IMG/VR virus record: IMGVR_UViG_3300013121_000049
Location: 16,253 to 80,252 of that record
Reading direction: 5' to 3' (one strand)
DNA length: 64,000 nt
From: a virus
Lineage: Duplodnaviria > Heunggongvirae > Uroviricota > Caudoviricetes
The translations under genes were made by a program, and so were the position numbers. The notes beneath the pieces were generated by a model. That model was not told the DNA's origin, did no database searches, and worked only from the letters and a program-made list of their open reading frames with translations. This document shows positions 8,830 to 59,532 of this stretch, piece by piece; the stretch's first letter is position 1; each line of letters starts with the position of its first letter.

Positions 8830-11700
8830 TCAATGTACCTGATAGTCCGAGACCAACCACCGATTGGGGTTGACGGTCTCCGTCTTGGCGTTCAGGACGC
8901 CGCCCGGCGCAGCGGTTGTACCGCCATCTTCTCCCTTACCGGCTTTTCCATTGAAGCGATCGACTGCTTGGGCGAAAACTTGTGCGGCCAGGCTCATGAC
9001 TTCCTCCGGAGAATGGCCTGCGGGGTTGCCTGTGGCTTCCCGGAGGGCCTCTACCGTCGACACCGCAGCTTCGTCTCTCCGAGCCGCCATGATCTGGGCC
9101 TGTGCCCTCTGCCAGTCTTCCCGCAGTTGCTCCGGGGTTGCCCGCAGTGCGTGAGACCGGATATCCCCGATCGCCTGGGCGTCCCGGAAATTGGAATGAA
9201 TGTCCAAGCCCACATGAGTCGCGGTTCCTGCCGCTCCGGCCATGCCGAACGCTTTGAGGCCCCCAACGTAGTCTTTTACTAACGAAATGGTCGCCAAGAG
9301 CTCTTTACGATTGACCTCGCTGGGATTACGAGCGAGATTGTTGCGTGCTTGTACGAGCCGCCGCTTGGTTGCACTTCCCTCCGCCAAATCCCCTGACTGG
9401 TCTATCCGGTCCGCCACGATAAGCAGTGCCTTGTTCTCATCCGCCACGCGATACCCTTTTTGGCTGCGGATACCTTCCATGGTTAAGGCGCCTATAGACA
9501 CTGCATTCGATATCTGGGCGGCCAGCGTGTTTTGCTCTGCCGTCGCTCCGTAGCCCACGCCGAACAAATCCCCCGTCAGCTTTTTACGGTACTGTTCCTC
9601 TGTCGTGGCGTCCCGCAGGTTGGAGTGATACAGGGAACCTTTGCTGTACCACTCCTGGGCTTCGTGCCACTTATCGGCGATAAACGCTGCGGTTCCCTTG
9701 TCCTCCATATCATTAAGGATGCCGCGGTATACACCATACGCCGCCCCTACGCCGCGGCCTATGGAAGCCCCCCATGCAGCGCCGCCAACGATGGCGGTAG
9801 GTACAGCTGCGAACCCCAGTCCGCCCGTCCCCAAGCCAAACGCCCCGGCCGCCACTCCGCCAACCGTTGCACCAAGAGCAGCCCCTATTCCCGTGCCCAA
9901 GACACCATAATAGAGAGTGTTTGTAGCTATGCCTGCCGCACTCGACCCCGCCTGACCCCAACTGGACCGGGCCGCCGCATTTTTCATAATGCCTTCTACA
10001 CCAGTCCCGCCGTAACCTCTTTGCAGGGCGCGGGCGTTAGAGTCCTGCTCCTGCTGCTTGGCCATTGCACCCCGTGCAGACCCGGACTGGATAGCGCGTA
10101 TCTGCTGGAGCATGGAGAAGGTTTCGTCTTCGCCCATACCCTGAGAACGGGCTACGTTGATCAGCATGTCCTCAGAGACTTTGCCGGTAGGAGAAAGCAT
10201 TCTGGCCATGCCGATGACATTGGAGTATGCCCCCATCGTCCCCTGGTCCATCATCGCCGCCGACTGCATCATGCGGCCCTGCTGGAAAAGCTGGGCGCTG
10301 ACGTGCAGCGGGTCACGCCCTGCATTGATGGCAAAGGCATTGATCGTGCCCAAGGCCCCCGCCCCTTGCCCGCCACCCAGGTACTGGTTGTACAGCCCCA
10401 TCATTCCCAACGGGCTGCCGTAGAGCTTGCCGGCACCGGACACCGCTGAGTTGGCTATCCCGGAGACGCCGCCGTACATGGCCACCCAAGGCTCGGCGAT
10501 GCCTCCTTGGTTGTACAGTGACCCCACCCCAGCCATGGCACGGGCACCCGCCCGAATACCGGATGCGCCCAGCATACCCATGCCGGCTGCCGTCATCCCG
10601 AAGCGACCGGCGTTCTGCAGTACACTCATGCCGCTCATGCCTGTGGCCATGCTGGCGACGCCAATATCCGTGAAGATGCCTTCCTGCACGCCGCCGTACA
10701 TCGCCCCCTGGTCGGCGAACTGCTTCATGATGGCCTGGACTTCCTGCATGCTGTCTTCGGTCATCTTGAGGACGCGCATGGCGGTCTTGGTCGACCGCAG
10801 GATGCCCTTGAGGCGGCGGTCCATTGCCTCGGGGTTCAGGTTACCGATGCCCTCGAACAAGCCGTTGGCCATGCCCATGCCGGCGATCTGGGCCACCGTA
10901 TTGTTGGAGAACTCCGTCTCCTGCCAGCCACGTTGGACGACCATTTTGCCCAAACGGTATGCACCCTGCGCGGACAAGCCGACACCGGTGGTAGCCCCCA
11001 TGTCGCCTGCAACGTACATATCCGAGTAATTGGACAGCGCGGCTTCCTCCGCCCGCCTGCGATTCATGTAGGGTTCAAATACCGTTTTCTGGGCGCCCCA
11101 AGTCATCCCTTGCGCCAGAAGGACCTCCGGAGCCATGAAGAGAGACGCGCCCATCCCCAGGCCACCGCCCAGGAAACCACCAACGCGGGCGCCCATCAAC
11201 GCAGCTTCCCCTCCGCTGCTCAGGCCAAACAAACGCTTGGACATATAACCCGCCGGAGCCGCCATTGCGCCCCCGATGCCCTGACCCATCCGATAGCCCG
11301 CTTCTCCCAAGACGCCCCAAGTCGGAGCAGTCGCGCCAAACGTCCTCCAGGTGGCGCCCCACCCCGACTTCATTTCGAATTCGACAGTACGAAGACCGGA
11401 TAACGCTTTCTTGGCCAACATGAAGCTGGCGATCGGCGTCACCCACTGCTGCAAGAAACCCATACCGGCGTCAACCGGCGTATTGGCCGCCATGTAGGCG
11501 TTGTGCGCCATCCATGCCGAGGGGTCGTCTCCCCACCCCGGGGCTCCGTGGCCCCAAGGCAAGGTCATGCTGGTAGACGACCAGGGCGACCGTTCGCCAC
11601 CCGGCGTCCCGTACATCGGACGGCGGTTCGGCCCCCACCCCGAGTCAAACCAGTTCTGGTTGCTGGAGTCAGGGTCCATCTGATCATACGGGTTTGCCAT
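8830..11700 (-). CDS. Tape measure protein
   Basis: About 956 aa, Gly/Ala/Met-rich and helical with hydrophobic Gly-rich segments; immediately downstream of a G/GT frameshift chaperone pair. Confidence 0.75.
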   Translation of the reverse strand: MANPYDQMDPDSSNQNWFDSGWGPNRRPMYGTPGGERSPWSSTSMTLPWGHGAPGWGDDPSAWMAHNAYMAANTPVDAGMGFLQQWVTPIASFMLAKKALSGLRTVEFEMKSGWGATWRTFGATAPTWGVLGEAGYRMGQGIGGAMAAPAGYMSKRLFGLSSGGEAALMGARVGGFLGGGLGMGASLFMAPEVLLAQGMTWGAQKTVFEPYMNRRRAEEAALSNYSDMYVAGDMGATTGVGLSAQGAYRLGKMVVQRGWQETEFSNNTVAQIAGMGMANGLFEGIGNLNPEAMDRRLKGILRSTKTAMRVLKMTEDSMQEVQAIMKQFADQGAMYGGVQEGIFTDIGVASMATGMSGMSVLQNAGRFGMTAAGMGMLGASGIRAGARAMAGVGSLYNQGGIAEPWVAMYGGVSGIANSAVSGAGKLYGSPLGMMGLYNQYLGGGQGAGALGTINAFAINAGRDPLHVSAQLFQQGRMMQSAAMMDQGTMGAYSNVIGMARMLSPTGKVSEDMLINVARSQGMGEDETFSMLQQIRAIQSGSARGAMAKQQEQDSNARALQRGYGGTGVEGIMKNAAARSSWGQAGSSAAGIATNTLYYGVLGTGIGAALGATVGGVAAGAFGLGTGGLGFAAVPTAIVGGAAWGASIGRGVGAAYGVYRGILNDMEDKGTAAFIADKWHEAQEWYSKGSLYHSNLRDATTEEQYRKKLTGDLFGVGYGATAEQNTLAAQISNAVSIGALTMEGIRSQKGYRVADENKALLIVADRIDQSGDLAEGSATKRRLVQARNNLARNPSEVNRKELLATISLVKDYVGGLKAFGMAGAAGTATHVGLDIHSNFRDAQAIGDIRSHALRATPEQLREDWQRAQAQIMAARRDEAAVSTVEALREATGNPAGHSPEEVMSLAAQVFAQAVDRFNGKAGKGEDGGTTAAPGGVLNAKTETVNPNRWLVSDYQVH

Positions 11701-15086: not shown

Positions 15087-15311
15087 CTATTTTCTGTCGG
15101 GCCCCAGGTCCAGATATCTCTGGTGAAGCTGTGCATGCTCCAGGTGGTATTGCGCTTCGCTCAGATCCCCTCGTGCCAAAGCCTCTGCCGCACGACTCGT
15201 GTGATGCTTGACTATCTCTTCCGGAGACCGTTTTCCGAGTCGAAATGTGGCGCCAAGTTCGTTGGTCACCGCATTCGCCACCTTCTCCATTTCGCTCAAG
15301 TACACGTTCAT
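15087..15311 (-). CDS. Small protein with N-terminal signature (putative head-packaged)
   Basis: Begins MNVYLSEMEKVA. Confidence 0.65.
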   Translation of the reverse strand: MNVYLSEMEKVANAVTNELGATFRLGKRSPEEIVKHHTSRAAEALARGDLSEAQYHLEHAQLHQRYLDLGPDRK

Positions 15312-15312
15312 G

Positions 15313-15729
15313 TCACGTCCTCTCTCGTTGCGTCAGCTGCACGGTATCCGTCATGGTGAAGGTCTGCAGCACCTGACCGTTCACCCGGTAAAGCGTCAGC
15401 ACGCCGGTCTGCTTGTTCCACGACCAGCTGCCGATCGCCGCGTCCTCGATGTTCTGCAGAAAGCTGAGGTCGCTGCGTTCCTTCACCCAGACCGACGCCG
15501 CGATGGCGTTGTCGATGAAGAACGTGTAGAGGCCGGAGTCCGTGAACACCAGGCTCAGCGTGTACAGGCCGTTGCCGATTTCCGCCCAGGTCAGCGGAGA
15601 CTGCAGACTGGTGTAGACCACGCCGTCCTTGAGGATGGTCAGCGTGAAGTTGGTGCGACCCGAGTCGTTGTTGCGGGCCACGAAAGGCACGCTGAACGGC
15701 TGGTTGATGACGGTTTCGAGGCTTAACAT
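15313..15729 (-). CDS. Putative virion protein, Ig-like beta-sandwich
   Basis: Beta-rich (WAEIGNGLYTLSLVFTDSGLYTFFI); late block. Confidence 0.5.
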   Translation of the reverse strand: MLSLETVINQPFSVPFVARNNDSGRTNFTLTILKDGVVYTSLQSPLTWAEIGNGLYTLSLVFTDSGLYTFFIDNAIAASVWVKERSDLSFLQNIEDAAIGSWSWNKQTGVLTLYRVNGQVLQTFTMTDTVQLTQRERT

Positions 15730-15758
15730 ATTGGTCTCCGGTACCTAGCGGGGCAGTA

Positions 15759-16061
15759 TCAGGTCAACCCACCTATCACAGTATTAGCCAGGGAATCCCC
15801 TGAATGATGGCCGACCGTAGTCAGCCTTGAAGCCTCTCGCAAAATAGGGCTTTTCCCCAGATCTCCCAGCTTGCCGACATGCGGAACGGTCTTGGTCGAC
15901 AGCTTTGCAGCTCCCATACCAACGGCGTGCGCCACCCCGCCTGCACCGGCCATTCGCATCCCCGCTCCCGGAGTCGCCAGTTGCCCTGCAAGGTGAACGC
16001 CATGAGTCAGCAGCTCCATCAGAGCCGCCTGTTTCTCCATGGCCTTCAGGTAGGGGTTCAT
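15759..16061 (-). CDS. Gly/Ala-rich protein with N-terminal signature
   Basis: Begins MNPYLKAMEKQAA. Confidence 0.65.
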   Translation of the reverse strand: MNPYLKAMEKQAALMELLTHGVHLAGQLATPGAGMRMAGAGGVAHAVGMGAAKLSTKTVPHVGKLGDLGKSPILREASRLTTVGHHSGDSLANTVIGGLT

Positions 16062-16633
16062 GTGGCCTCCATCTCCAGGATATACAAACCCATGGCTTCC
16101 TTCAGCGCGTTCTCCTGGGAAACCGCCTCCGGAGTACTGGCGTCAGGGAATTCCGTGTCGGCGACGAACGGGAAAATCGGCCGGCGGATGCCTTCGTGAT
16201 GCAGGACGGTTTCGGCCAGCATGGCGACGGCGGTGTCCGGGTGGAATCCGATGGGCAAGTGGTGGAGGACGTACAGCGTGTAGGCCAACTCCAGGACGGT
16301 CGGCAGCACCAGGACATCCGGCTCATCGGCCTGATTGTTGATGACGTCGCAGGCCGCCAGGAACAACACCTGGTCTTCCTGGATGCGCGGGACTTCGGCC
16401 AGATCCATGACGCCGTTCGAGCTGTCGTCGGCGATACGCTCTTCGACCGGCCGGGCATCGGATAGCAAGCCCTTCAGGAGACGGATCTTCGCCAGCATGA
16501 GTGGTGTGAAAGCCACGCCCAGGTCCAGGGACAGCGTCTCGTCCTCCAGACGCCACCACTGCGGGCCGTGCACCGTCGTCAGCAGCTGGTTGAGCAGGAC
16601 CAGCGAGGTGCGGTCAGAGAGCGGGGCTGGCAT
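16058..16633 (-). CDS. Hypothetical late protein
   Basis: MPAPLSDRT... from ATG 16633; coupled overlap with the next gene. Confidence 0.65.
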   Translation of the reverse strand: MPAPLSDRTSLVLLNQLLTTVHGPQWWRLEDETLSLDLGVAFTPLMLAKIRLLKGLLSDARPVEERIADDSSNGVMDLAEVPRIQEDQVLFLAACDVINNQADEPDVLVLPTVLELAYTLYVLHHLPIGFHPDTAVAMLAETVLHHEGIRRPIFPFVADTEFPDASTPEAVSQENALKEAMGLYILEMEAT

Positions 16634-16638
16634 CGAAC

Positions 16639-17052
16639 TTACTCTCCGTACGCACGACGACTTGACCTGTTGGCCAAGTACCCCATGCCGCCTACTACAG
16701 CCGCTCCCCCCAACATGGAAGCCGCCGTGCGGGGCAGGCTCACGGGCGTCCTGTTCAACAGCGCCGGCATAACACCTCCGGCAAGCCCGCCCAAAGAGGC
16801 CCCAAGCATTGCAGAAGAAGAAACAGGAACACGTTGCTCGGGTCGAGGCGCCCTTGCCTTGAGGACAGCTAAAGTGGCTGGAACAGCAGCTGCTGACGCC
16901 AACCACGCAGGATGCCTCTCCCCCCCCATGTACAACAAGCCTCCGCTCATCGTACCCGCCAAAGCGCCAAGACCCACCAACTCTCCGGCCGTCATAGGCT
17001 TGCGCTCTTGCTCAAAGGCGACCTTAATCATGCCGCTCAAGTACGGATTCAT
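16639..17052 (-). CDS. Gly-zipper-like protein with N-terminal signature
   Basis: Begins MNPYLSGMIKVAF; several GxxxG hydrophobic segments. Confidence 0.65.
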   Translation of the reverse strand: MNPYLSGMIKVAFEQERKPMTAGELVGLGALAGTMSGGLLYMGGERHPAWLASAAAVPATLAVLKARAPRPEQRVPVSSSAMLGASLGGLAGGVMPALLNRTPVSLPRTAASMLGGAAVVGGMGYLANRSSRRAYGE

Positions 17053-19009: not shown

Positions 19010-19019
19010 CTAGTTTAGC
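19010..19019 (-). promoter_or_regulatory. Putative late promoter GCTAAACTAG
   Basis: Identical 10-mer at 59523-59532; both lie 21-25 nt upstream of the first gene of a minus-strand late unit. Confidence 0.55.
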
Positions 19020-20894: not shown

Positions 20895-21538
20895 AACTGA
20901 ACAAGACCATCAAGAAAGCCATGCGCGAAGCCGCCGTGAAAGTGCTGTTCGACGCACAGGCTCCGGTGCTGCGTGCGGAAGCCGTCCGACTGGCGGACGG
21001 CTTGTACGCGCACGAATACAATGACACCGACTTGAACGCGATTCTGGCTGCGCTCGCCGGCAAGGACAGACGTTGGCTGCACTGGGCGGACAGTGTCACC
21101 CTGCACGACGGGCTATACCTCTCCCATTTCATGAGCAAAGACAGCCACGAATGGAACAAACGCGATGATATCCGGAAGATATGGGGAACGTATGGCTGGG
21201 CGACCCTGCCGATGAGCGCGTCGCGTCCCTTCCCCCACGCTTACGCCGGACGACTGCCGAAGATATCCCAGAAAAGTCACCCCTTGCACGAGGGCTTCAA
21301 GAACGCCGTGATGTACCTTTACAGCAGAACCGAGCGGTTGATCCGCGATAGCGACGCCCTGACGGAGGAAGTCGACCAGCTGCTGGCGTCGATCCCCACG
21401 TTGAAGAAGCTGGAAGAAGTCTGGCCGGAGGGCACGCGCTTCCTGCCGCCCATCGAAGCCCCTGTGAAACCCATCGTCCCCGTCAACCTGACGGAATCCA
21501 TCAACGCCCGCATCTTCTCGGGAGCCAACGTCCAATGA
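20891..21538 (+). CDS. Nucleotide modification-associated domain 5 (Nmad5)-like protein
   Basis: MKLNKTIK N-terminus and C-terminal LASIPTLKKLEEVWPEGTRFLP motif. Confidence 0.65.
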   Translation: MKLNKTIKKAMREAAVKVLFDAQAPVLRAEAVRLADGLYAHEYNDTDLNAILAALAGKDRRWLHWADSVTLHDGLYLSHFMSKDSHEWNKRDDIRKIWGTYGWATLPMSASRPFPHAYAGRLPKISQKSHPLHEGFKNAVMYLYSRTERLIRDSDALTEEVDQLLASIPTLKKLEEVWPEGTRFLPPIEAPVKPIVPVNLTESINARIFSGANVQ

Positions 21539-22485
21539 AAGCTATCGCCAAGGAAACCCTGATCCGTGCGCTGAACCGCATGGGCTACGGCCAAACGCCG
21601 AACAGCCTGCAGATCCACCACGAACCCTTGGGGCCCGGCCTCCCCATCGGCTTCCGCGTCTATCGGGACGTCGACCTGTCCCTGGAAGACTGCGTGGATT
21701 TCCTGGTGTTTCACGGTAATCCGTCTACCCTGGTGGCCCGCTTCCAGTACACCACGGCACGCGGAAACCTGATTTCCGAGGAAATCACGACGGGCGCAGC
21801 GGAGTCCGGTCAAGTTGCCGAATTCCTCGGTGTGGTAGCTGAACGCATGGACTCGTACGGCTATTCGCGCGCACCGAACGAAGAGCAGCCCAAGGAGGAA
21901 GTGCTGCTCGGCCGCTACTTGGAAGTCCTCTCCTTGCGTTTCCCGCATGTTCCGGCGCCCGACCGCTACGACCGCAACATCGTCGACGGCATCGCCATGG
22001 CGGAGTGGATCCCCAAGCGCAGCCTGGATTCGTTCCTGCTGGAGGTCTCGGAAAACCGGTTGGCCTTCTTCCGGCAGAAACGGGAAGCCTACGGCGGTCC
22101 GGTCAACACCACGGAATATCTGATCCTGGACGGCGGGGAGTTGCTGGACGCGCACGGCGCGGCAGCGGCGACCATCATCGGCCAGGTGCTGGACGTCTAC
22201 TGGAATGGCGGCGGCGACCCGTTCCCTGACATGCCGCCGATTAAACCGGAGGGTAAGCCCGCTCCAGTGTACGTCCCTCCGGTTACCGGACAACCAAAGC
22301 CGAATGACCCCGACCGAGTGGTGATCCCCGGGGCGCTGAAGCGCGGCATGCCGGAGGTCGACTTCGGCCCGCTGGCCCCCAGCACGGAAGACAGGGTTAA
22401 CGCCATGCGTGCGCCGCGTGCGCCGGTGGACCCCAGCAAGCCCGGCGCCACGCCGGATAACGCCATCGACCTCGGCGACGACTGA
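21535..22485 (+). CDS. Hypothetical protein with Pro-rich C-terminus
   Basis: Coupled 316-aa ORF. Confidence 0.7.
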   Translation: MKAIAKETLIRALNRMGYGQTPNSLQIHHEPLGPGLPIGFRVYRDVDLSLEDCVDFLVFHGNPSTLVARFQYTTARGNLISEEITTGAAESGQVAEFLGVVAERMDSYGYSRAPNEEQPKEEVLLGRYLEVLSLRFPHVPAPDRYDRNIVDGIAMAEWIPKRSLDSFLLEVSENRLAFFRQKREAYGGPVNTTEYLILDGGELLDAHGAAAATIIGQVLDVYWNGGGDPFPDMPPIKPEGKPAPVYVPPVTGQPKPNDPDRVVIPGALKRGMPEVDFGPLAPSTEDRVNAMRAPRAPVDPSKPGATPDNAIDLGDD

Positions 22486-22493
22486 GGTATAAG
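22486..22493 (+). promoter_or_regulatory. GGTATAAG promoter motif
   Basis: Intergenic, upstream of 22539. Confidence 0.7.
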
Positions 22494-22538
22494 GACTCGG
22501 GGTGCTATGCCCCGAGCCTGCTTTTCTGGAGAGTCCCC

Positions 22539-23120
22539 ATGGTAACAGCGCTTCTTTTTTTCGCCGGATTAGGCGCCCTCATCCTATTTGCTTTCTTGTG
22601 CTTCGCTTTCCTGCAAGGAGCCGGGCCGCGCATCACCGCCGCCGCAAGCCGTCTTTTCCCTGATCCAGCGGCACTAAATGCTGCCCAGATCAACGACAAC
22701 CTTGCCAGCCAGGTATTTTTCACGTTGATGCAGGTCTACAAGCCTTGCGCCAAGGCCGGCTTCCGTCCGCTGACTGCGACGGAGATGAGCCTGCTGCAGA
22801 GAGCCTTCCAATACGACCTGAAGCGGCAGATGTTCCGCGAACGCTACACCCACCGCAAGGCAATGATGTCGAACTCCGAATTGCGGGAAGAAGCCGCGGC
22901 GTGCTTTGTCCGAGTAGTGTCTCCGCTTTTTCCGGATGCCGCCGTCACACGCCTGCTGGAGCATGCGAACGTCATCGTCCAGATGGAGAGCTACAGCGGC
23001 TCTACGCCGGAACTTCGTGAATGGACGATCGGCATGCCTATCGAGGCACCACAACCGTCCGCCGCTGACGGCGCGCCGCCCGCAGTATCGCTTTCAGGCC
23101 TTCCACTGAAATCTTCGTGA
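22539..23120 (+). CDS. N-terminally membrane-anchored hypothetical protein
   Basis: Hydrophobic N-terminus MVTALLFFAGLGALILFAFLCFAFL. Confidence 0.7.
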   Translation: MVTALLFFAGLGALILFAFLCFAFLQGAGPRITAAASRLFPDPAALNAAQINDNLASQVFFTLMQVYKPCAKAGFRPLTATEMSLLQRAFQYDLKRQMFRERYTHRKAMMSNSELREEAAACFVRVVSPLFPDAAVTRLLEHANVIVQMESYSGSTPELREWTIGMPIEAPQPSAADGAPPAVSLSGLPLKSS

Positions 23121-23553
23121 CCGGCCCCAGGAACCGCTTGTCGTCGTACTGCTTGAGGAACGCCCGGATGGCTTCGTCGCGCCGGCGGAAGCCCAGCATG
23201 ACCTTGTCTTCGTCCCACTTGCCCCAGTCGCCGGCCACCCGCTGGTGGACCACATAGGCAAACGGGGCTTTCTTGTCGGGACCGACGTAGACATCCAGGG
23301 CGTCGCCGTCGCGTCCCCGGGTCGCCTCGATGTAGCCATAGGGATGGTGCATCTTCACCTTCCAGCCCGGGCCTTCCCGCGTGCTGCCCTTGGGGTTCTC
23401 GATGGCGATCGGGATGCCCTGAAAGTCGACCCTCGGCTTGAAATAGTTCCCCGCGCGGATCTGGGCATCGGTCGGCTTCCGCCACACGCCGCGACCACCC
23501 AAGTCTTCGCGCAATTCCGCGAGCTTTCGCATCTCACACAGGAAATCGTTCAT
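23038..23553 (-). CDS. InPase (inorganic pyrophosphatase-like, polyvalent-protein family) domain protein
   Basis: AGNYFKPRVDFQGIPIAIENPKGSTR...MHHPYGYI...GRDGDALDVYVGP...DEDKVMLGF motifs. Start 23553 (MNDFLCEMRKLA). Confidence 0.82.
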   Translation of the reverse strand: MNDFLCEMRKLAELREDLGGRGVWRKPTDAQIRAGNYFKPRVDFQGIPIAIENPKGSTREGPGWKVKMHHPYGYIEATRGRDGDALDVYVGPDKKAPFAYVVHQRVAGDWGKWDEDKVMLGFRRRDEAIRAFLKQYDDKRFLGPVTKISVEGLKAILRAARRQRRTVVVPR

Positions 23554-24265
23554 GTCCAAAACCCCCAACCCGATCCCCGATGATACACCCGGCGCCATTG
23601 TCTTTGCATACGGCGACCCCCTGCCCAAGATGCAGTGGGGTGGAAACCCCGTGTTTATCCTTCCCGATCGCAGCGTGCTCGATCGATTGGGCCTTTGCCG
23701 ACTGCTCAAAGACCTCGACCTGAATCCTGACCAGCCTCGGATCATGACCTTGCACTTGATGCCGCTCCCACGCCCGGAGGGGCTCGGCAGTACCACCATC
23801 TGGTGGCGTAGCCGGGATGGTCGCACGGACCTGTCTCCCGCAGATCAACTGACCTGGCTGAGCCCGGAAGAGCTGAACCATGCCTCTGCAATAGGCCGCT
23901 ACGATTTTGAGCTTTGCGACGGAGACATCATCGACTGGTGCATGCCCTATCGCCTGCAAGGCGGCTGGTACGCGCTTCAGCCCGCTCCGAAAGGCCTGCC
24001 CCCTTTTCTTCGGAAAAACGAGTACGAGGATACCGGGACGTCTGTGGTGAAGGTTACCGTCGTAGAAGCGGATAACCGGGTCTTGCCGTATTTTCTGGAC
24101 CTGGCGGAGGTTGCCCTTATGAAGCCGGTGGATGTCGTTCTGTCCAAGAGTGCCCGGGTAGAAAAACGCACGGGGGTGTACCTGAGAAACCAGATGGCCT
24201 TGGTCGTCAAAGGTCACGACATCATCAACCGCTGGATCGCTTACAAGGCCCGGGTGCAAAAATGA
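23552..24265 (+). CDS. Hypothetical protein
   Basis: 237 aa; AGGA RBS; its ATG overlaps the divergent InPase ATG (CATG). Confidence 0.65.
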   Translation: MSKTPNPIPDDTPGAIVFAYGDPLPKMQWGGNPVFILPDRSVLDRLGLCRLLKDLDLNPDQPRIMTLHLMPLPRPEGLGSTTIWWRSRDGRTDLSPADQLTWLSPEELNHASAIGRYDFELCDGDIIDWCMPYRLQGGWYALQPAPKGLPPFLRKNEYEDTGTSVVKVTVVEADNRVLPYFLDLAEVALMKPVDVVLSKSARVEKRTGVYLRNQMALVVKGHDIINRWIAYKARVQK

Positions 24266-24342
24266 ACAAGGATGCTCCTCTGGAATGCCCCTGCGGAAAG
24301 GGGGAAAATCGGGCCTCCCACTGACACGATGTCGAGACCGCA

Positions 24343-24609
24343 ATGCGCCGAAGTTACACCCTGACTATCCGGTCGCCCCAAACGACGGTGTCTTCCGTGA
24401 TCCGGAAAGACACTCGCCTGGAAATCAAGGACGCCGCTCTGGAGATGGTCGCCGTGCTCTGCCCACCGCAGGTGCGCGGCGCCGCCCTGAGCAACCTGGC
24501 CCGGATGATGGCCTTTGAAATTCCGCCGTACTCCAAGAGCGTCTCCACAGTGAGCGCCTGCGGACAGTACGCGGTTCTCCTGCAAGAAACCCTGCCTCAA
24601 GAGAACTAG
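24343..24609 (+). CDS. Hypothetical protein
   Basis: 88-aa ORF in the plus-strand run. Confidence 0.55.
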   Translation: MRRSYTLTIRSPQTTVSSVIRKDTRLEIKDAALEMVAVLCPPQVRGAALSNLARMMAFEIPPYSKSVSTVSACGQYAVLLQETLPQEN

Positions 24610-24613
24610 ACCC

Positions 24614-25252
24614 ATGAGTAATCTCGAACCCCTCAACGTCATCATGCAGTTCCATTTCGCCGTGACGAATTACTCCGGAGACCCCTCTCTGGAAGACCAC
24701 CGCCGTCGGGCCCTGAAGGGCCTGCAGACCAGTTTGACCAAGAGCACCGGCGTCGACCTGTCGGCCTACGACAGCGTGCTGGAGACGGCGGCCCCCCTCC
24801 CCGAGACCGAAACCTACCCGGACGCCCCGGGCGATGAGGTGATCATCAGCCATGTGTTCGGCCGTGCTGTTGACGTCATGGCCCTGATGGCGCCCAATTT
24901 ACCCACGCTGGTGGCTTTTGCATCGGGCCGCACGGCGACTATCTTCCCCGCCGGCCTCTACGAAGTGCTCTGCGCTCTGGATGACGTCGACCTGGTGACC
25001 ATCTCCAATCACCCGGTTTCCCTGACGCGCTTCGTCCGGGTGCTGAGACGCCAGCCCTGGTACACCGAGTTCCTCTCGCGGCAGGAAAACGGCGTCGTGC
25101 TGAACATGGGCACCATCGAGTATCTTCGCGATGATTGCCCGCAGCCGGTCAAGATTTTCCTCAACCTGGCCCACGATGCGCTGGCCATGAAGGGGCAAAT
25201 CGGTCCGAACGGGCCCTACACGCTGGCGGAAGACCCTCCCGAGGGCACTTGA
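24614..25252 (+). CDS. Hypothetical protein
   Basis: 212-aa ORF followed by a terminator. Confidence 0.7.
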   Translation: MSNLEPLNVIMQFHFAVTNYSGDPSLEDHRRRALKGLQTSLTKSTGVDLSAYDSVLETAAPLPETETYPDAPGDEVIISHVFGRAVDVMALMAPNLPTLVAFASGRTATIFPAGLYEVLCALDDVDLVTISNHPVSLTRFVRVLRRQPWYTEFLSRQENGVVLNMGTIEYLRDDCPQPVKIFLNLAHDALAMKGQIGPNGPYTLAEDPPEGT

Positions 25253-25270
25253 TGCCCTCGACGCACTGCG

Positions 25271-25295
25271 AACCGCCTCCGGGCGGTTCTTTTTT
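25271..25295 (+). terminator. Rho-independent terminator
   Basis: AACCGCC-TCCG-GGCGGTT-CTTTTTT. Confidence 0.7.
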
Positions 25296-25309
25296 AGCCA
25301 GGATTCGGT

Positions 25310-25676
25310 TTCCGGCTACCTCTGGAAGACGTCAGGTAGCCGGAAAAAACCGCTCAGGTAGCCGGCGAAACCCTTGCGCCCCAAGGGATGCAGCCGTTGG
25401 GCTACCCGGACTACCTCGGCTACCTCGGAAATAAGCCTGAATATATATGCGCGTGCGCGTCATGCGCGTATACAGGAGTGACATGAGAAAGTAAAGACCG
25501 CTCGTACATAATCTTGTCTGACAATCGACCGCCCTATTTTTTCTTATATATATATATAGTTTTCAGAAAGTAGGTAGTATAGGTAGCCCAAATGACGTAA
25601 CCGTTGGGGCGCAAGGATTTCGCCGGCTACCAAAAGGTAAAAACGAAGTAGCAATTAGGTAGCCGAGGTAGCCGGA
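25310..25676. repeat. Origin-like region: GGTAGCC/GGCTACC iterons, long inverted repeat, AT-rich core
   Basis: Nine exact heptamers plus two variants; 28-bp IR (27/28) at 25357-25384 and 25604-25631; 12-bp perfect stem at 25310-25345; TATATA/T-rich core at about 25535-25570; non-coding. Confidence 0.7.
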
Positions 25677-25680
25677 CTCA

Positions 25681-25688
25681 GGTATAAG
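25681..25688 (+). promoter_or_regulatory. GGTATAAG promoter motif
   Basis: Right edge of the origin-like region. Confidence 0.7.
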
Positions 25689-25729
25689 AATTCAGGCAGG
25701 CAATCACGCCTGCAGTGAAGGAGAGACCT

Positions 25730-25894
25730 GTGTATTCCGTGCGATTTATAAAGTCGAAGGGGGGTTGGTGCATCGTCCATCAGCTCACGCCAGACCACCA
25801 CCGCCGCCACGTCGAGGGGCCGTTTCCGAGCAAGCCGCAAGCCGACGCCCGCTGCAAGGCGTACCAGGAAGGCCGCGCCAAGGAGGAAGACTGA
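25730..25894 (+). CDS. Small hypothetical protein (54 aa, not in the ORF track)
   Basis: AAGGAG RBS, GTG start; TGATG overlap with the next gene. Confidence 0.6.
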   Translation: MYSVRFIKSKGGWCIVHQLTPDHHRRHVEGPFPSKPQADARCKAYQEGRAKEED

Positions 25895-26301
25895 TGGCCG
25901 GCGTCGAAGACTTTGCGTACCTTCCTACCCAGCATTCCTGGCTGGCGACCGAGACGCCGCGCAACGCTATCCCGATGGGCAGCCTCCACCACTGGATCCG
26001 GGATGGCCAGACGTTTGAAAACTATTGCCGCAACCTGGCGGCGTACCTGGCGATCTACGACTCCATTTACGAAGAGGCCGACGCCGAGTTCAACAGCTGC
26101 AAGGAATTCCACCGACGCGCCGCCGGGGATAAGAAAGGCGGGGCGTTTCACCACTACGTTGTTTCCCGGTTGCGGACCATTCGCCTGCGCTATGACCCCG
26201 ATTTGGCCGGACTGGGGATTACCCGGTGCGTCTACTCGCGGGACTCCGTCAAGCGCGTGGCCGATCGTATTGTCGCCGACTGGGAGGAGAAGCCCGTATG
26301 A
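25894..26301 (+). CDS. Hypothetical protein
   Basis: MAGVEDFAY...; GGAGG RBS. Confidence 0.7.
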   Translation: MAGVEDFAYLPTQHSWLATETPRNAIPMGSLHHWIRDGQTFENYCRNLAAYLAIYDSIYEEADAEFNSCKEFHRRAAGDKKGGAFHHYVVSRLRTIRLRYDPDLAGLGITRCVYSRDSVKRVADRIVADWEEKPV

Positions 26302-56524: not shown

Positions 56525-57727
56525 TCACTGGTTTCCCTGCGGGTGACCGGCAAGAGCATGATGGGCCATAGCGAGGCCTCCGACAACCAAGGCTCCCTTG
56601 GCCGCAAGGCCTGCCCCGGTGGTCCAGCGGTACAGTTTCTGCATTTTTGCCGAGTCCTCAACCGCAGCAGTCGACATGCCCTTTCCTTTCATGTACTCGA
56701 TCTTTTTGTCTGTCGACATGTTTTTCATGGCGTCAAGATGTGCCTTAGCAGCGGCCTCATCCCCTTCGGAGTGCCTCCACACCGTATGCTCGATCGTCCC
56801 CTTCAGATGATCTCCTGTCAAAGGCGAGAAGGGGTTGCTGCTCAGTATTTCGCTGGGGTGCCGAGGAGGTTCCCCTGCAGCCTTGCACATGCTATGCAGA
56901 TACGGATTCACCGCCGCCTGCTTCTGCTGGCTGCCGCCACTGCCCAGGAACGCCGCGCCGGCAACAGTGCCGCCGCCAGCACCGACCGCTGTGGCGATGC
57001 GGGCAGTCTTCTGCGCCCGGACTGCATTTTCATAGCCGGAGGTGTCATGCACGCCCAAGGTCTCCTTGAGATACTTGACCTTGCCCTCGTGGTCATCAAT
57101 CTTCCCGAGTTCCTTGATGTGCCGGTCGACGTCTTCCGGACCATTAACCCGAGGAGCCGACGCAACGGTCTTCTTCAGCGTTGCCTCAGTGTGTTGACCG
57201 GACAGGTGCCCCCAGTAGCCATCAGTGTCCTTGGGCTTGTTCTCTTTTGGTGCCTCCGTCTTCGGCGTTTCCGCAGCAGGGGCCTCCGTCTTCGGCGCTT
57301 CCGCAGCAGGGGCCTCCGTCTTCGGCGCTTCCGCAGCAGGGGCCTCCGTCTTCGGCGCTTCCGCAGCAGGGGCCTCCGTCTTCGGAGCTTCCGCAGCAGG
57401 GGCCTCCGTCTTCGGAGCTTCCGCAGCAGGGGCCTCCGTCTTCGGAGCTTCCGCAGCGGGTGCCGCAGGCTTCTGGTAGTGCTTTGTCATTTCGGCATGC
57501 ACGTCTCCCAAATGCTCATCCCGTATACCCTGGCCTTTCAACGTCTTGACCAAAGAGTCGGGGCTCCCAGTCTTGGCATGGTACCTGGCCATCGACTTTA
57601 CTTGGATTTTTGCACTCTCGCTCAAACCGGATTTTGCGGCGGCGTGGCCGGCCTTTTCCACAATAGCTTCAACGGCCTCTGACGGTAATCCAGCCAGTTT
57701 TTCCATGTAAAGAATAAACGGATTCAT
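56525..57727 (-). CDS. Ala-rich putative internal head protein; two signature-headed modules plus a PAEK repeat linker
   Basis: MNPFILYMEKLAG; internal VNPYLHSMCKAAG; (AAEAPKTEAP)x7. Confidence 0.7.
   Translation of the reverse strand: MNPFILYMEKLAGLPSEAVEAIVEKAGHAAAKSGLSESAKIQVKSMARYHAKTGSPDSLVKTLKGQGIRDEHLGDVHAEMTKHYQKPAAPAAEAPKTEAPAAEAPKTEAPAAEAPKTEAPAAEAPKTEAPAAEAPKTEAPAAEAPKTEAPAAETPKTEAPKENKPKDTDGYWGHLSGQHTEATLKKTVASAPRVNGPEDVDRHIKELGKIDDHEGKVKYLKETLGVHDTSGYENAVRAQKTARIATAVGAGGGTVAGAAFLGSGGSQQKQAAVNPYLHSMCKAAGEPPRHPSEILSSNPFSPLTGDHLKGTIEHTVWRHSEGDEAAAKAHLDAMKNMSTDKKIEYMKGKGMSTAAVEDSAKMQKLYRWTTGAGLAAKGALVVGGLAMAHHALAGHPQGNQ
57251..57460 (-). repeat. 30-bp VNTR, seven units
   Basis: Units at 57252, 57282, 57312, 57342, 57372, 57402 and 57432. 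Confidence 0.92.
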
Positions 57728-57740
57728 ACAGACCTCGTTG

Positions 57741-58298
57741 TTAGTACTGACCTTGGTTACGCTGCCCGGATACGTGAGACATGACTGCTGCTCCTGCCGC
57801 CGCGCCCGTCACGGCCCGCGTCGCAGCCCGACTTCCCATGGCATTCTTGATGGACTTCACGGCTTCGGGGCCAAGGTTATCCTGCGTGAACTTCAGCTTC
57901 TTCTCGTCAGAGAGTCCGCTGAGCTGTTGCTCGAAGGCAAACCGTTGGGCCGGCGTAGAGAACTTGCCCGCCATCTCGGCATGCCGCATGATTTCCCGAT
58001 TGACGTTGGAGCCGAACAAAGCCTGAGCGTAGTTCACCGGAGCCCGGACCAACCCGCGCGCGGTGTTGTACCCTGCGTTGACCACGGAACCGACGATGCC
58101 GGGGCCTTCTTTCTTTGCAGCGCCCGCCACAGCCTCGGCCGCCTCTGCCGCTGCAGCCGACTGCTTGTACATAGGCAACGTCGCCGCTTCCCGAGGAGCA
58201 CCGATCTTGGCGCGCTCCAGAAGGTCTTGAACCAGGAGGCGAGGCTTTGGCAGGAGGCCAGCCTCCTTCATCATGGCTTCCAGGTACGGATTGCTCAT
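57741..58298 (-). CDS. Ala-rich putative internal head protein with N-terminal signature
   Basis: MSNPYLEAMMKEAG; C-terminal half resembles the modules of the 56525 protein. Confidence 0.7.
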   Translation of the reverse strand: MSNPYLEAMMKEAGLLPKPRLLVQDLLERAKIGAPREAATLPMYKQSAAAAEAAEAVAGAAKKEGPGIVGSVVNAGYNTARGLVRAPVNYAQALFGSNVNREIMRHAEMAGKFSTPAQRFAFEQQLSGLSDEKKLKFTQDNLGPEAVKSIKNAMGSRAATRAVTGAAAGAAVMSHVSGQRNQGQY

Positions 58299-59522: not shown

Positions 59523-59532
59523 CTAGTTTAGC
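59523..59532 (-). promoter_or_regulatory. Putative late promoter GCTAAACTAG
   Basis: Just after a terminator, 21 nt upstream of ATG 59501; identical to 19010-19019. Confidence 0.55.

Follow-up and report, generated by a model that had tools for sequence, protein, structure and literature searches.

What does a single minus-strand gene do inside a 29-kb island of plus-strand genes, and why does its product begin with a short peptide that recurs on unrelated proteins of the same phage? The window analysed here is the whole 64,000-nt stretch of DNA, corresponding to bases 16253-80252 of a phage genome of 144,252 bp with direct terminal repeats. An earlier note on this DNA had described the gene as an antisense, stand-alone InPase-domain gene carrying a putative packaging signal. 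We asked whether the gene is real, what it encodes, what the N-terminal peptide may be for, and how the gene is likely to be expressed. Coordinates of the features discussed are collected in Table 1.

Table 1. Features of the InPase locus and the other tagged genes; positions are those of the window unless marked as genome positions.
Feature	Position	Strand	Basis or remark
InPase gene (P0001)	23038..23553	-	171 aa plus TAG stop; Pfam PF18823, E 2.8e-39
InPase domain	23083..23469	-	Pfam residues 29-157; confident beta-barrel core 40-150
N-terminal tag MNDFLCEMRKLA	23518..23553	-	residues 1-12; exact match to N.[YFW][LIVTM]..M.K.A
Variable linker	23470..23517	-	residues 13-28; predicted end of tag helix, then disordered stretch
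Basic C-terminal helix and tail	23041..23103	-	residues 151-171; 7 K+R, 1 D+E
Convergent 193-aa gene, hydrophobic N-terminus	22539..23120	+	83-nt overlap with InPase 3' end
Divergent 237-aa gene, function unassigned	23552..24265	+	ATG shares 2 nt with InPase ATG; AGGAAA 9 nt before its ATG
GGTATAAG promoter-like motif	22486..22493	+	would start the plus-strand unit antisense through InPase
Tagged 74-aa protein MNVYLSEMEKVA	15087..15311	-	regex
Tagged 100-aa Gly/Ala-rich protein MNPYLKAMEKQA	15759..16061	-	regex
Tagged 137-aa Gly/Ala-rich protein MNPYLSGMIKVA	16639..17052	-	regex
Tagged 400-aa protein MNPFILYMEKLA; second, internal tag VNPYLHSMCKAA from 56908	56525..57727	-	regex
Tagged 185-aa protein MSNPYLEAMMKEA	57741..58298	-	regex
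Tagged 958-aa SNF2 helicase g16	outside window		regex
Tagged 70-aa protein	genome 88264-88476	+	31 nt behind a GGTATAAG site

The reading frame runs from an ATG at 23553 to a TAG at 23038-23040, with the stop lying inside the plus-strand 193-aa ORF. Close strains carrying the gene (L007-L010) were found in several metagenome assemblies; a megablast search of 21000-26000 against cultured phages gave no match. Between this phage and strain L007, all 13 substitutions in 23041-23464 (424 nt, covering domain plus C-terminal tail) are silent and sit at third codon positions of the InPase frame (binomial p = 6e-7). The 171-aa ORF is a real gene under strong purifying selection. A whole-genome gene call based on codon usage gave it a score of 75, while the just two other minus-strand ORFs in 19063-48308 scored 9 (59 aa) and 14 (40 aa), so that its earlier description as the only convincing minus-strand gene of the island was fair. 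The geometry described for its two ends was equally accurate: the 3' end overlaps the upstream plus-strand gene by 83 nt (23038-23120), and the CATG at 23551-23554 contains both its own ATG and that of the divergent gene.

Neither of the two flanking genes, the convergent 193-aa gene and the divergent 237-aa gene, matched a Pfam or PHROG family. Compared with L007, the 193-aa ORF has 29, 20 and 6 substitutions at codon positions 3, 1 and 2, respectively, amounting to 11% per nucleotide or about four times the rate in the InPase gene. Because these substitutions favour third positions, the ORF appears to be coding, and it is probably a real, fast-evolving membrane-protein gene. The 83 nt shared by the two genes differ from L007 at four positions. 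None of these changes alters InPase and each alters the product of the 193-aa ORF; the InPase frame is therefore the constrained one there.

Judged by its sequence, the product is securely assigned as an InPase-family enzyme. The earlier note had proposed a search against PF18823 as its check, and this returned 134.5 bits against a cut-off of 26.8, with the match spanning profile positions 1-134 of 135. Ten residues (E52, R59, Y72, D82, D87, D114, E115, D116, K117 and Y136) are invariant across a 50-sequence alignment. They include the metal-binding acidic residues E52, D82, D87, D114, E115 and D116, all intact, in agreement with the clear InPase motifs first read from the sequence; such acidic metal ligands define the InPase active site (Iyer et al., 2017, J Bacteriol 199:e00245-17; PMC5512222). 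The DGDALD motif aligns with the pyrophosphatase signature in PDB entries 3i4q and 4ecp. The profile of the cellular pyrophosphatases themselves (PF00719) reached 19.8 bits, below its cut-off of 23.5, and aligned with residues 67-114 only; on this sequence comparison InPase is a distant relative of that family, not a member. In PHROG, the matches are to InPase segments of giant polyvalent and DarB-like proteins and of proteins annotated as "minor head" or "virion structural". An AlphaFold2 model of the protein has a mean pLDDT of 85.6, rising above 90 in the core (residues 40-150). Its top 50 Foldseek matches in the PDB are all inorganic (family I) pyrophosphatases, at modest similarity (best E 2.2e-4, TM 0.40-0.45), and the model thus suggests that the core has the family I pyrophosphatase fold, an OB-like barrel. 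With a pI of 9.99 the protein is strongly basic, a property that it shares with its closest relatives.

Its substrate need not be pyrophosphate. The enzyme may instead act on a nucleotide-derived molecule that the host makes during infection (an alarmone or defence signal, for example), rather than on free PPi, which would make it a counter-defence enzyme. Hosts are already rich in pyrophosphatase, the position that we take to match E. coli K142 seems to hold Asp (Y136-D137), and the PF00719 match stays below its cut-off, all of which speak for another substrate. One was proposed for this family from NUDIX, GNAT and TmrB contexts, and the phage family is described as being without the beta-hairpin (strands 1-2) of the cellular enzymes (Iyer et al., 2017; PMC5512222). 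Against this, the protein has every metal-binding acidic residue as well as the conserved Arg, Lys and Tyr residues, and no linked defence or signal partner gene was found in the three lineages compared here. We consider a substrate other than PPi unlikely.

InPase was already known as a domain class of phage polyvalent proteins, and delivery with the virion has likewise been inferred for InPase-type proteins (Iyer et al., 2017; PMC5512222). The protein described here resembles the polyvalent InPase in family, in metal-binding residues and in the inference of delivery. It differs in being a free single domain, for which delivery would need an N-terminal label of its own and not fusion to a carrier. 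At 171 aa it has one domain, where polyvalent proteins have 2 to 15, so its description as a stand-alone protein holds; in effect it is a polyvalent-protein domain occurring by itself. The SNF2 helicase, a companion domain in polyvalent proteins, is here a separate tagged protein.

Elsewhere, InPase is found physically within virion proteins. The sole match among solved structures was the portal protein gp19 of Pseudomonas phage Pa193, in which residues 636-730 are InPase (PDB 9b41, E 2.7e-17); residues 529-765 of this portal lack density, and the domain was not annotated by the authors (PMC11456595). The portals of Pbunavirus (Pa193 gp19 and E217 gp19; PMC11456595) are comparable in that they place InPase in a virion protein facing the capsid interior. 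However, theirs is covalently fused and present in 12 copies, whereas here it is a free protein. A further portal with InPase, BcepF1.124, is cited by Iyer et al. (PMC5512222).

The best homologue in a cultured phage is gp028 of Bordetella phage vB_BbrM_PHB04 (YP_009792694.1; 170 aa, 55% identity over residues 23-151), encoded between portal genes and genes for DarB-like, Ulx-like and helicase proteins. Like gp043 of Vibrio phage 1.244.A, it is a stand-alone InPase of about 170 aa. Unlike the gene studied here, that of PHB04 is co-oriented with its module, is not antisense, and carries no NxYLxxMxKxA tag. In Vibrio phage 1.031.O, a 356-aa InPase protein (gp184) is encoded two genes after the capsid gene. 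The head region of that phage has a recurrent peptide of its own, [IL]L-x-[IL]-C-E-[SA], distinct from the tag described below; six copies lie near the N-termini of small proteins and one lies inside the InPase protein, just past the domain. We take this peptide to resemble the T4 capsid-targeting sequence with its I/L-x-E cleavage motif. By analogy, 1.031.O may be an independent parallel, in which InPase is handled together with small head proteins.

The InPase protein had been said to begin with a "late-protein signature". Written as N-x-[YF]-[LI]-x-x-M-x-K-x-A and searched as the regular expression N.[YFW][LIVTM]..M.K.A in six frames of the 144,252-bp genome, this signature gave nine matches, against 0.003 expected per dinucleotide-shuffled genome and 0.001 per residue-shuffled proteome. 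Eight of the nine directly follow a start codon; the remaining one is internal, in a protein that is also tagged N-terminally. As a motif the signature is thus well founded, but the strictly late label was too narrow: the 70-aa tagged gene lies behind a GGTATAAG site, and the tag is therefore not strictly a late mark. Among the copies, the tag codons differ synonymously, indicating that selection acts on the tag as a peptide, not as DNA or RNA sequence.

Six more tags, all N-terminal and all on one strand, occur in a sister phage (G001, a 95.5-kb IMG/VR contig that shares the MCP lineage), bringing the N-terminal matches in the two genomes to 14 of 15. The tag is absent from Salmonella phage Arash, Vibrio phages D69 and 1.031.O, and PHB04. 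Across IMG/VR, an exact ATG-NPYL-type pattern had no match, and a looser DNA pattern yielded genuine tags in G001, in one identical contig and nowhere else; as a control, its matches in unrelated contigs were never N-terminal. The tag is statistically solid, conserved in a small clade, and found mostly on virion-operon proteins.

The copy on InPase, MNDFLCEMRKLA, is the most divergent of all, yet it still fits the signature exactly. Strains L007-L010 keep the tag, in frame, as MNDFLCEMRKIA, despite a deletion of 10 codons from the linker that follows. In L007 this deletion is an in-frame loss of 30 nt at 23484-23513, and the linker carries nine further substitutions, spread over all codon positions. 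In the AlphaFold2 model, residues 2-17 form a low-confidence helix and pLDDT drops below 50 at residues 17-23. Read from these comparisons, the architecture appears to be a conserved label, a freely varying linker and a constrained enzyme.

Could the tag on InPase be an artefact of the start codon chosen? Translation might begin at Met8, in which case only M-R-K-L-A of the tag would be made and the tag would be non-functional on this protein. The recorded protein of L007-L010 (P0002) does begin at the Met8-equivalent codon, and the Shine-Dalgarno-like site before ATG1 is weak (GGGGG, 8-nt spacer); the ribosome-binding site before Met8 is no better, however (GTGTGAG). Moreover, N2, F4 and L5 stand exactly where the motif requires them, a full match being as rare by chance as stated above, and ATG1 and the seven codons upstream of Met8 are unchanged in L007, in contrast to the indel and nine substitutions in the linker. 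A start at Met8 is, in our view, very improbable.

If the tag is real, the other proteins that carry it offer the best clue to its function. Seven of the nine tags lie within virion operons. At 15087-17052 the tagged genes are interspersed with g38, g37 and g36, whose orthologues in Arash are gp242, gp243 and gp245; Gp242 and Gp243 are present in the Arash virion proteome (PMC10585845). Arash (Arashvirus) belongs to the same lineage as the present phage, as do Vibrio phages D69, D181 and D148 (MCP 45-46% and terminase 48% identity), and these four have neither InPase nor NxYLxxMxKxA tags. Starting at its residue 14, just past the tag, the tagged SNF2 helicase g16 aligns over the full length of Arash Gp217 (41% identity), which was detected in virions with 38 unique peptides and 1148 spectra (PMC10585845). 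This pair is the best indirect sign that the label marks virion cargo. Both the RNA polymerase and the SNF2 helicase were found in Arash virions (PMC10585845), and an RNA polymerase piece of the present phage, g118, is 52% identical to Arash gp216. The Arash virion list comprises 116 proteins and includes obvious metabolic enzymes, which are possible contaminants (PMC10585845), and it is therefore no clean standard. The small tagged proteins matched no Pfam or PHROG family. A candidate prohead protease, g113, has a weak PHROG match (E 4e-5).

Short peptides that send unrelated proteins into the prohead are known from T4, with its capsid-targeting sequence (PMC3012670), and from P1, in the N-terminal 30 residues of DarB (PMC9024508); in both cases the cargo is injected. 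The InPase protein shares with these systems the order of tag, flexible linker and enzyme, read here from sequence alone. It departs from T4 in that the tag sequence is unrelated and the cargo gene lies outside the head module. Delivery in the virion is the best-supported reading, and we give it roughly an even chance.

The InPase protein may instead be cytoplasmic and never packaged, with the tag serving for docking on a phage hub (the RNA polymerase or a replication complex), for proteolysis or for localisation. Recruited to such a hub, the enzyme would remove pyrophosphate where it is made. The closest orthologues, in G001 (66% identity) and in L011-L013 (63%), bear on this point. They are untagged, starting at the domain itself (MPQWKQ and MPHWKQ, respectively) with a stop codon just upstream, and they lie between homologues of g169 and g167, by the split DNA polymerase A genes, a setting that suggests replication. 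The single tagged gene behind a plus-strand GGTATAAG and the lack of a late promoter motif upstream of InPase (see below) also favour a cytoplasmic role. Several observations pull the other way: the concentration of tags in virion operons, the abundance in virions of the Arash orthologue of the tagged helicase, the InPase domains physically contained in Pbunavirus portals, and the fact that short N-terminal labels on unrelated proteins are a hallmark of T4 head internal proteins (PMC3012670). Taken together, a cytoplasmic role seems to us distinctly less probable than delivery in the virion.

Since the nearest orthologues are untagged, packaging is neither ancestral nor obligatory for InPase, and the label and linker (about 22 residues) were acquired in the immediate lineage of this phage. 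Here the gene also sits at another site, in the plus-strand island. We tentatively suggest, at somewhat less than an even chance, that a portable 11-residue capsid label, unlike the T4 capsid-targeting sequence, was recently grafted with its linker onto an enzyme that remains untagged among the replication genes of sister phages, turning a cytoplasmic helper into injected cargo.

How would such a gene be expressed? The promoter-like motif GGTATAAG occurs in exact form 27 times across the genome; 26 of these occurrences lie on the plus strand, and almost all precede plus-strand genes. A copy at 22486 appears to start a plus-strand unit, and the next one downstream comes only at 25681. The simplest reading is therefore a single transcript covering the 193-aa gene, a 431-nt stretch without plus-strand coding sequence, and the genes at 23552-25252. 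This transcript would be antisense to the entire InPase gene, and we infer that InPase is silent while the plus-strand unit is active. The antisense unit thus probably keeps InPase off until it shuts down.

This layout is not peculiar to the present phage. In three lineages, InPase is a single gene with opposite-strand genes on both flanks; the distance from its start to that of the divergent gene is -2, 21 and 11 nt, and its 3' overlap with the convergent gene is 83, 17 and 42 nt. We considered a conserved cassette of InPase and its convergent partner and rejected it, as the 193-aa ORF is unlike the convergent genes of L011 and G001. In both the present phage and G001, InPase is on the strand of the tagged genes, despite lying at different sites among opposite-strand genes; it is outside every virion operon, yet on the late-gene strand in both.

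Any promoter of the InPase gene itself must fall inside the divergent 237-aa gene. We built a 12-nt late-promoter matrix from nine sites upstream of minus-strand operons (STAAAMTAG type, e.g. GCTAAACTAG and GTAAAATAG). Its best 11 matches in the genome are all on the minus strand, and a similar motif recurs in G001 ahead of a gene on the tagged strand. Within 500 nt upstream of InPase no late-promoter-like motif was found, the best match reaching 5.6 bits against at least 11.4 for the matrix sites. Scanned with this matrix, the region ahead of the G001 InPase had no site, and that in L011 had just a weak one (10.8 bits at -163). A sigma-70 scan of 22300-24400 found none. No public RNA run containing 22400-24400 was listed in a search. 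Two other candidates were discarded: GGATAAACACGG, at -107, has a 9-mer in common with the site upstream of g23, but as many matches of this length are expected by chance; a match at 25299 on the minus strand is the T-run of a plus-strand terminator.

Putting these elements together, we propose that a small, basic and probably catalytically competent InPase enzyme gained a 12-residue amphipathic N-terminal label and a flexible linker. The same label heads seven or eight other unrelated proteins, including the SNF2 helicase and the small Gly/Ala-rich proteins of the virion operons. As with the T4 capsid-targeting sequence or the P1 DarB signal, the label would take InPase into the assembling prohead, and the enzyme would then be ejected along with the DNA, the helicase and the multisubunit RNA polymerase carried in the head. 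Once in the cell it would split pyrophosphate and so drive early transcription, as well as other nucleotidyl-transfer reactions, or alternatively hydrolyse a related nucleotide-derived compound. Its gene stands alone on the late-gene strand, within a noncoding gap of a plus-strand operon, and would probably be held off by antisense transcription from GGTATAAG at 22486 until that unit stops. By analogy with the systems above, a tagged InPase that is targeted to the capsid, made late, injected with the DNA and active on pyrophosphate or a related compound strikes us as an evenly balanced proposition.

The enzyme family, its stand-alone copies and N-terminal capsid signals were already known. What is new is the specific label, its recent addition to InPase, and the conserved nested antisense layout. 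InPase is among the commonest modules of proteins supposedly injected by phages, and here a free InPase comes with a defined, clade-specific label and with untagged controls. If the proposal is correct, the tagged and untagged orthologues would serve as a natural experiment on cargo recruitment by phages, with the label as a ready tool for loading proteins into the capsids of this lineage. The nested antisense layout, kept at two distinct places in the genomes, points to a simple means of timing such a gene. Should the label prove to be a capsid-targeting signal, it would show how phages bringing their own RNA polymerase put together a set of cargo proteins.

Minus-strand operons in this phage are often preceded by a late-promoter-like motif with a consensus of about [GC]TAAA[AC]T[AC]G; in many cases it lies 20-75 nt upstream of the operon, and GCTAAACTAG and GTAAAATAG are two such sites. 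All 11 top matches of the corresponding matrix in the genome fall on the minus strand, the matrix having been made from the same sites that it scored. One example, TGCTAAACTAGG, is found again in G001, a sister phage, where it stands 13 nt upstream of a ribosome-binding site. We also observed a second lone antisense gene, encoding 103 aa and located within the plus-strand replication block. A late-like motif (GGGTAAAATCAT) lies about 75 nt upstream of this gene, and its homologue in the related contig L011 is likewise antisense.

The plus strand carries a promoter-like motif of its own. The sequence GGTATAAG occurs in 27 exact copies in the genome, 26 of them on the plus strand, often with a GC-rich hairpin 5-30 nt downstream. 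The copy at window position 22486 begins one base past the upstream gene's stop codon. The 193-aa ORF that overlaps the InPase gene has a hydrophobic N-terminus and is fast-evolving: 11% of its positions differ from the counterpart in the related strain L007, compared with 3% for the adjacent InPase.

Two further observations concern the N-terminal tag shared by InPase and other proteins of this phage. A 400-aa tagged protein contains a second copy of the tag, with a valine before it, suggesting either that two tagged proteins have been fused or that this is a processing site. Separately, an ORF located upstream of the region of the tagged SNF2 helicase carries a degenerate tag-like peptide (NPYADAMAKAEAE) at its C-terminal end.

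Vibrio phage 1.031.O has a recurrent peptide of a different kind. Its head region (MG592415.1, 131826-144311) contains seven copies of [ILV][LIV]x[ILV]CE[SA], six of which are in small proteins, 7-12 residues past the start (e.g. MKTAQDILTICES), while the remaining copy is inside the 356-aa InPase protein, directly after the InPase domain. To us, this peptide looks like a capsid-targeting and cleavage motif of the T4 type.

Positions of the features discussed in the phage genome, the window and other loci
Feature	Genome	Window	Other loci	Strand	Remarks
Late-promoter-like motif sites		19010-19019, 59523-59532, other minus-strand operon starts	G001: L025, L041		
GGTATAAG sites	25 further sites	22486-22516		+	
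193-aa ORF, part before the InPase overlap		22539-23037		+	
400-aa tagged protein		56525-57727		-	second tag from 56908
Lone antisense 103-aa gene	139317-139628	outside		-	
Degenerate tag-like peptide	11543-11596	outside	L014	-	
495-aa protein	79703-81190	63451 onward	L047:703-2190	-	upstream of scaffold-like genes and capsid gene

In our phage, a 495-aa protein weakly matches phrog_18299, a family of head maturation proteases (E 4e-5). It is also orthologous to gp222 of Arash, a Salmonella phage of the same lineage, and we therefore regard this protein as a candidate prohead protease.
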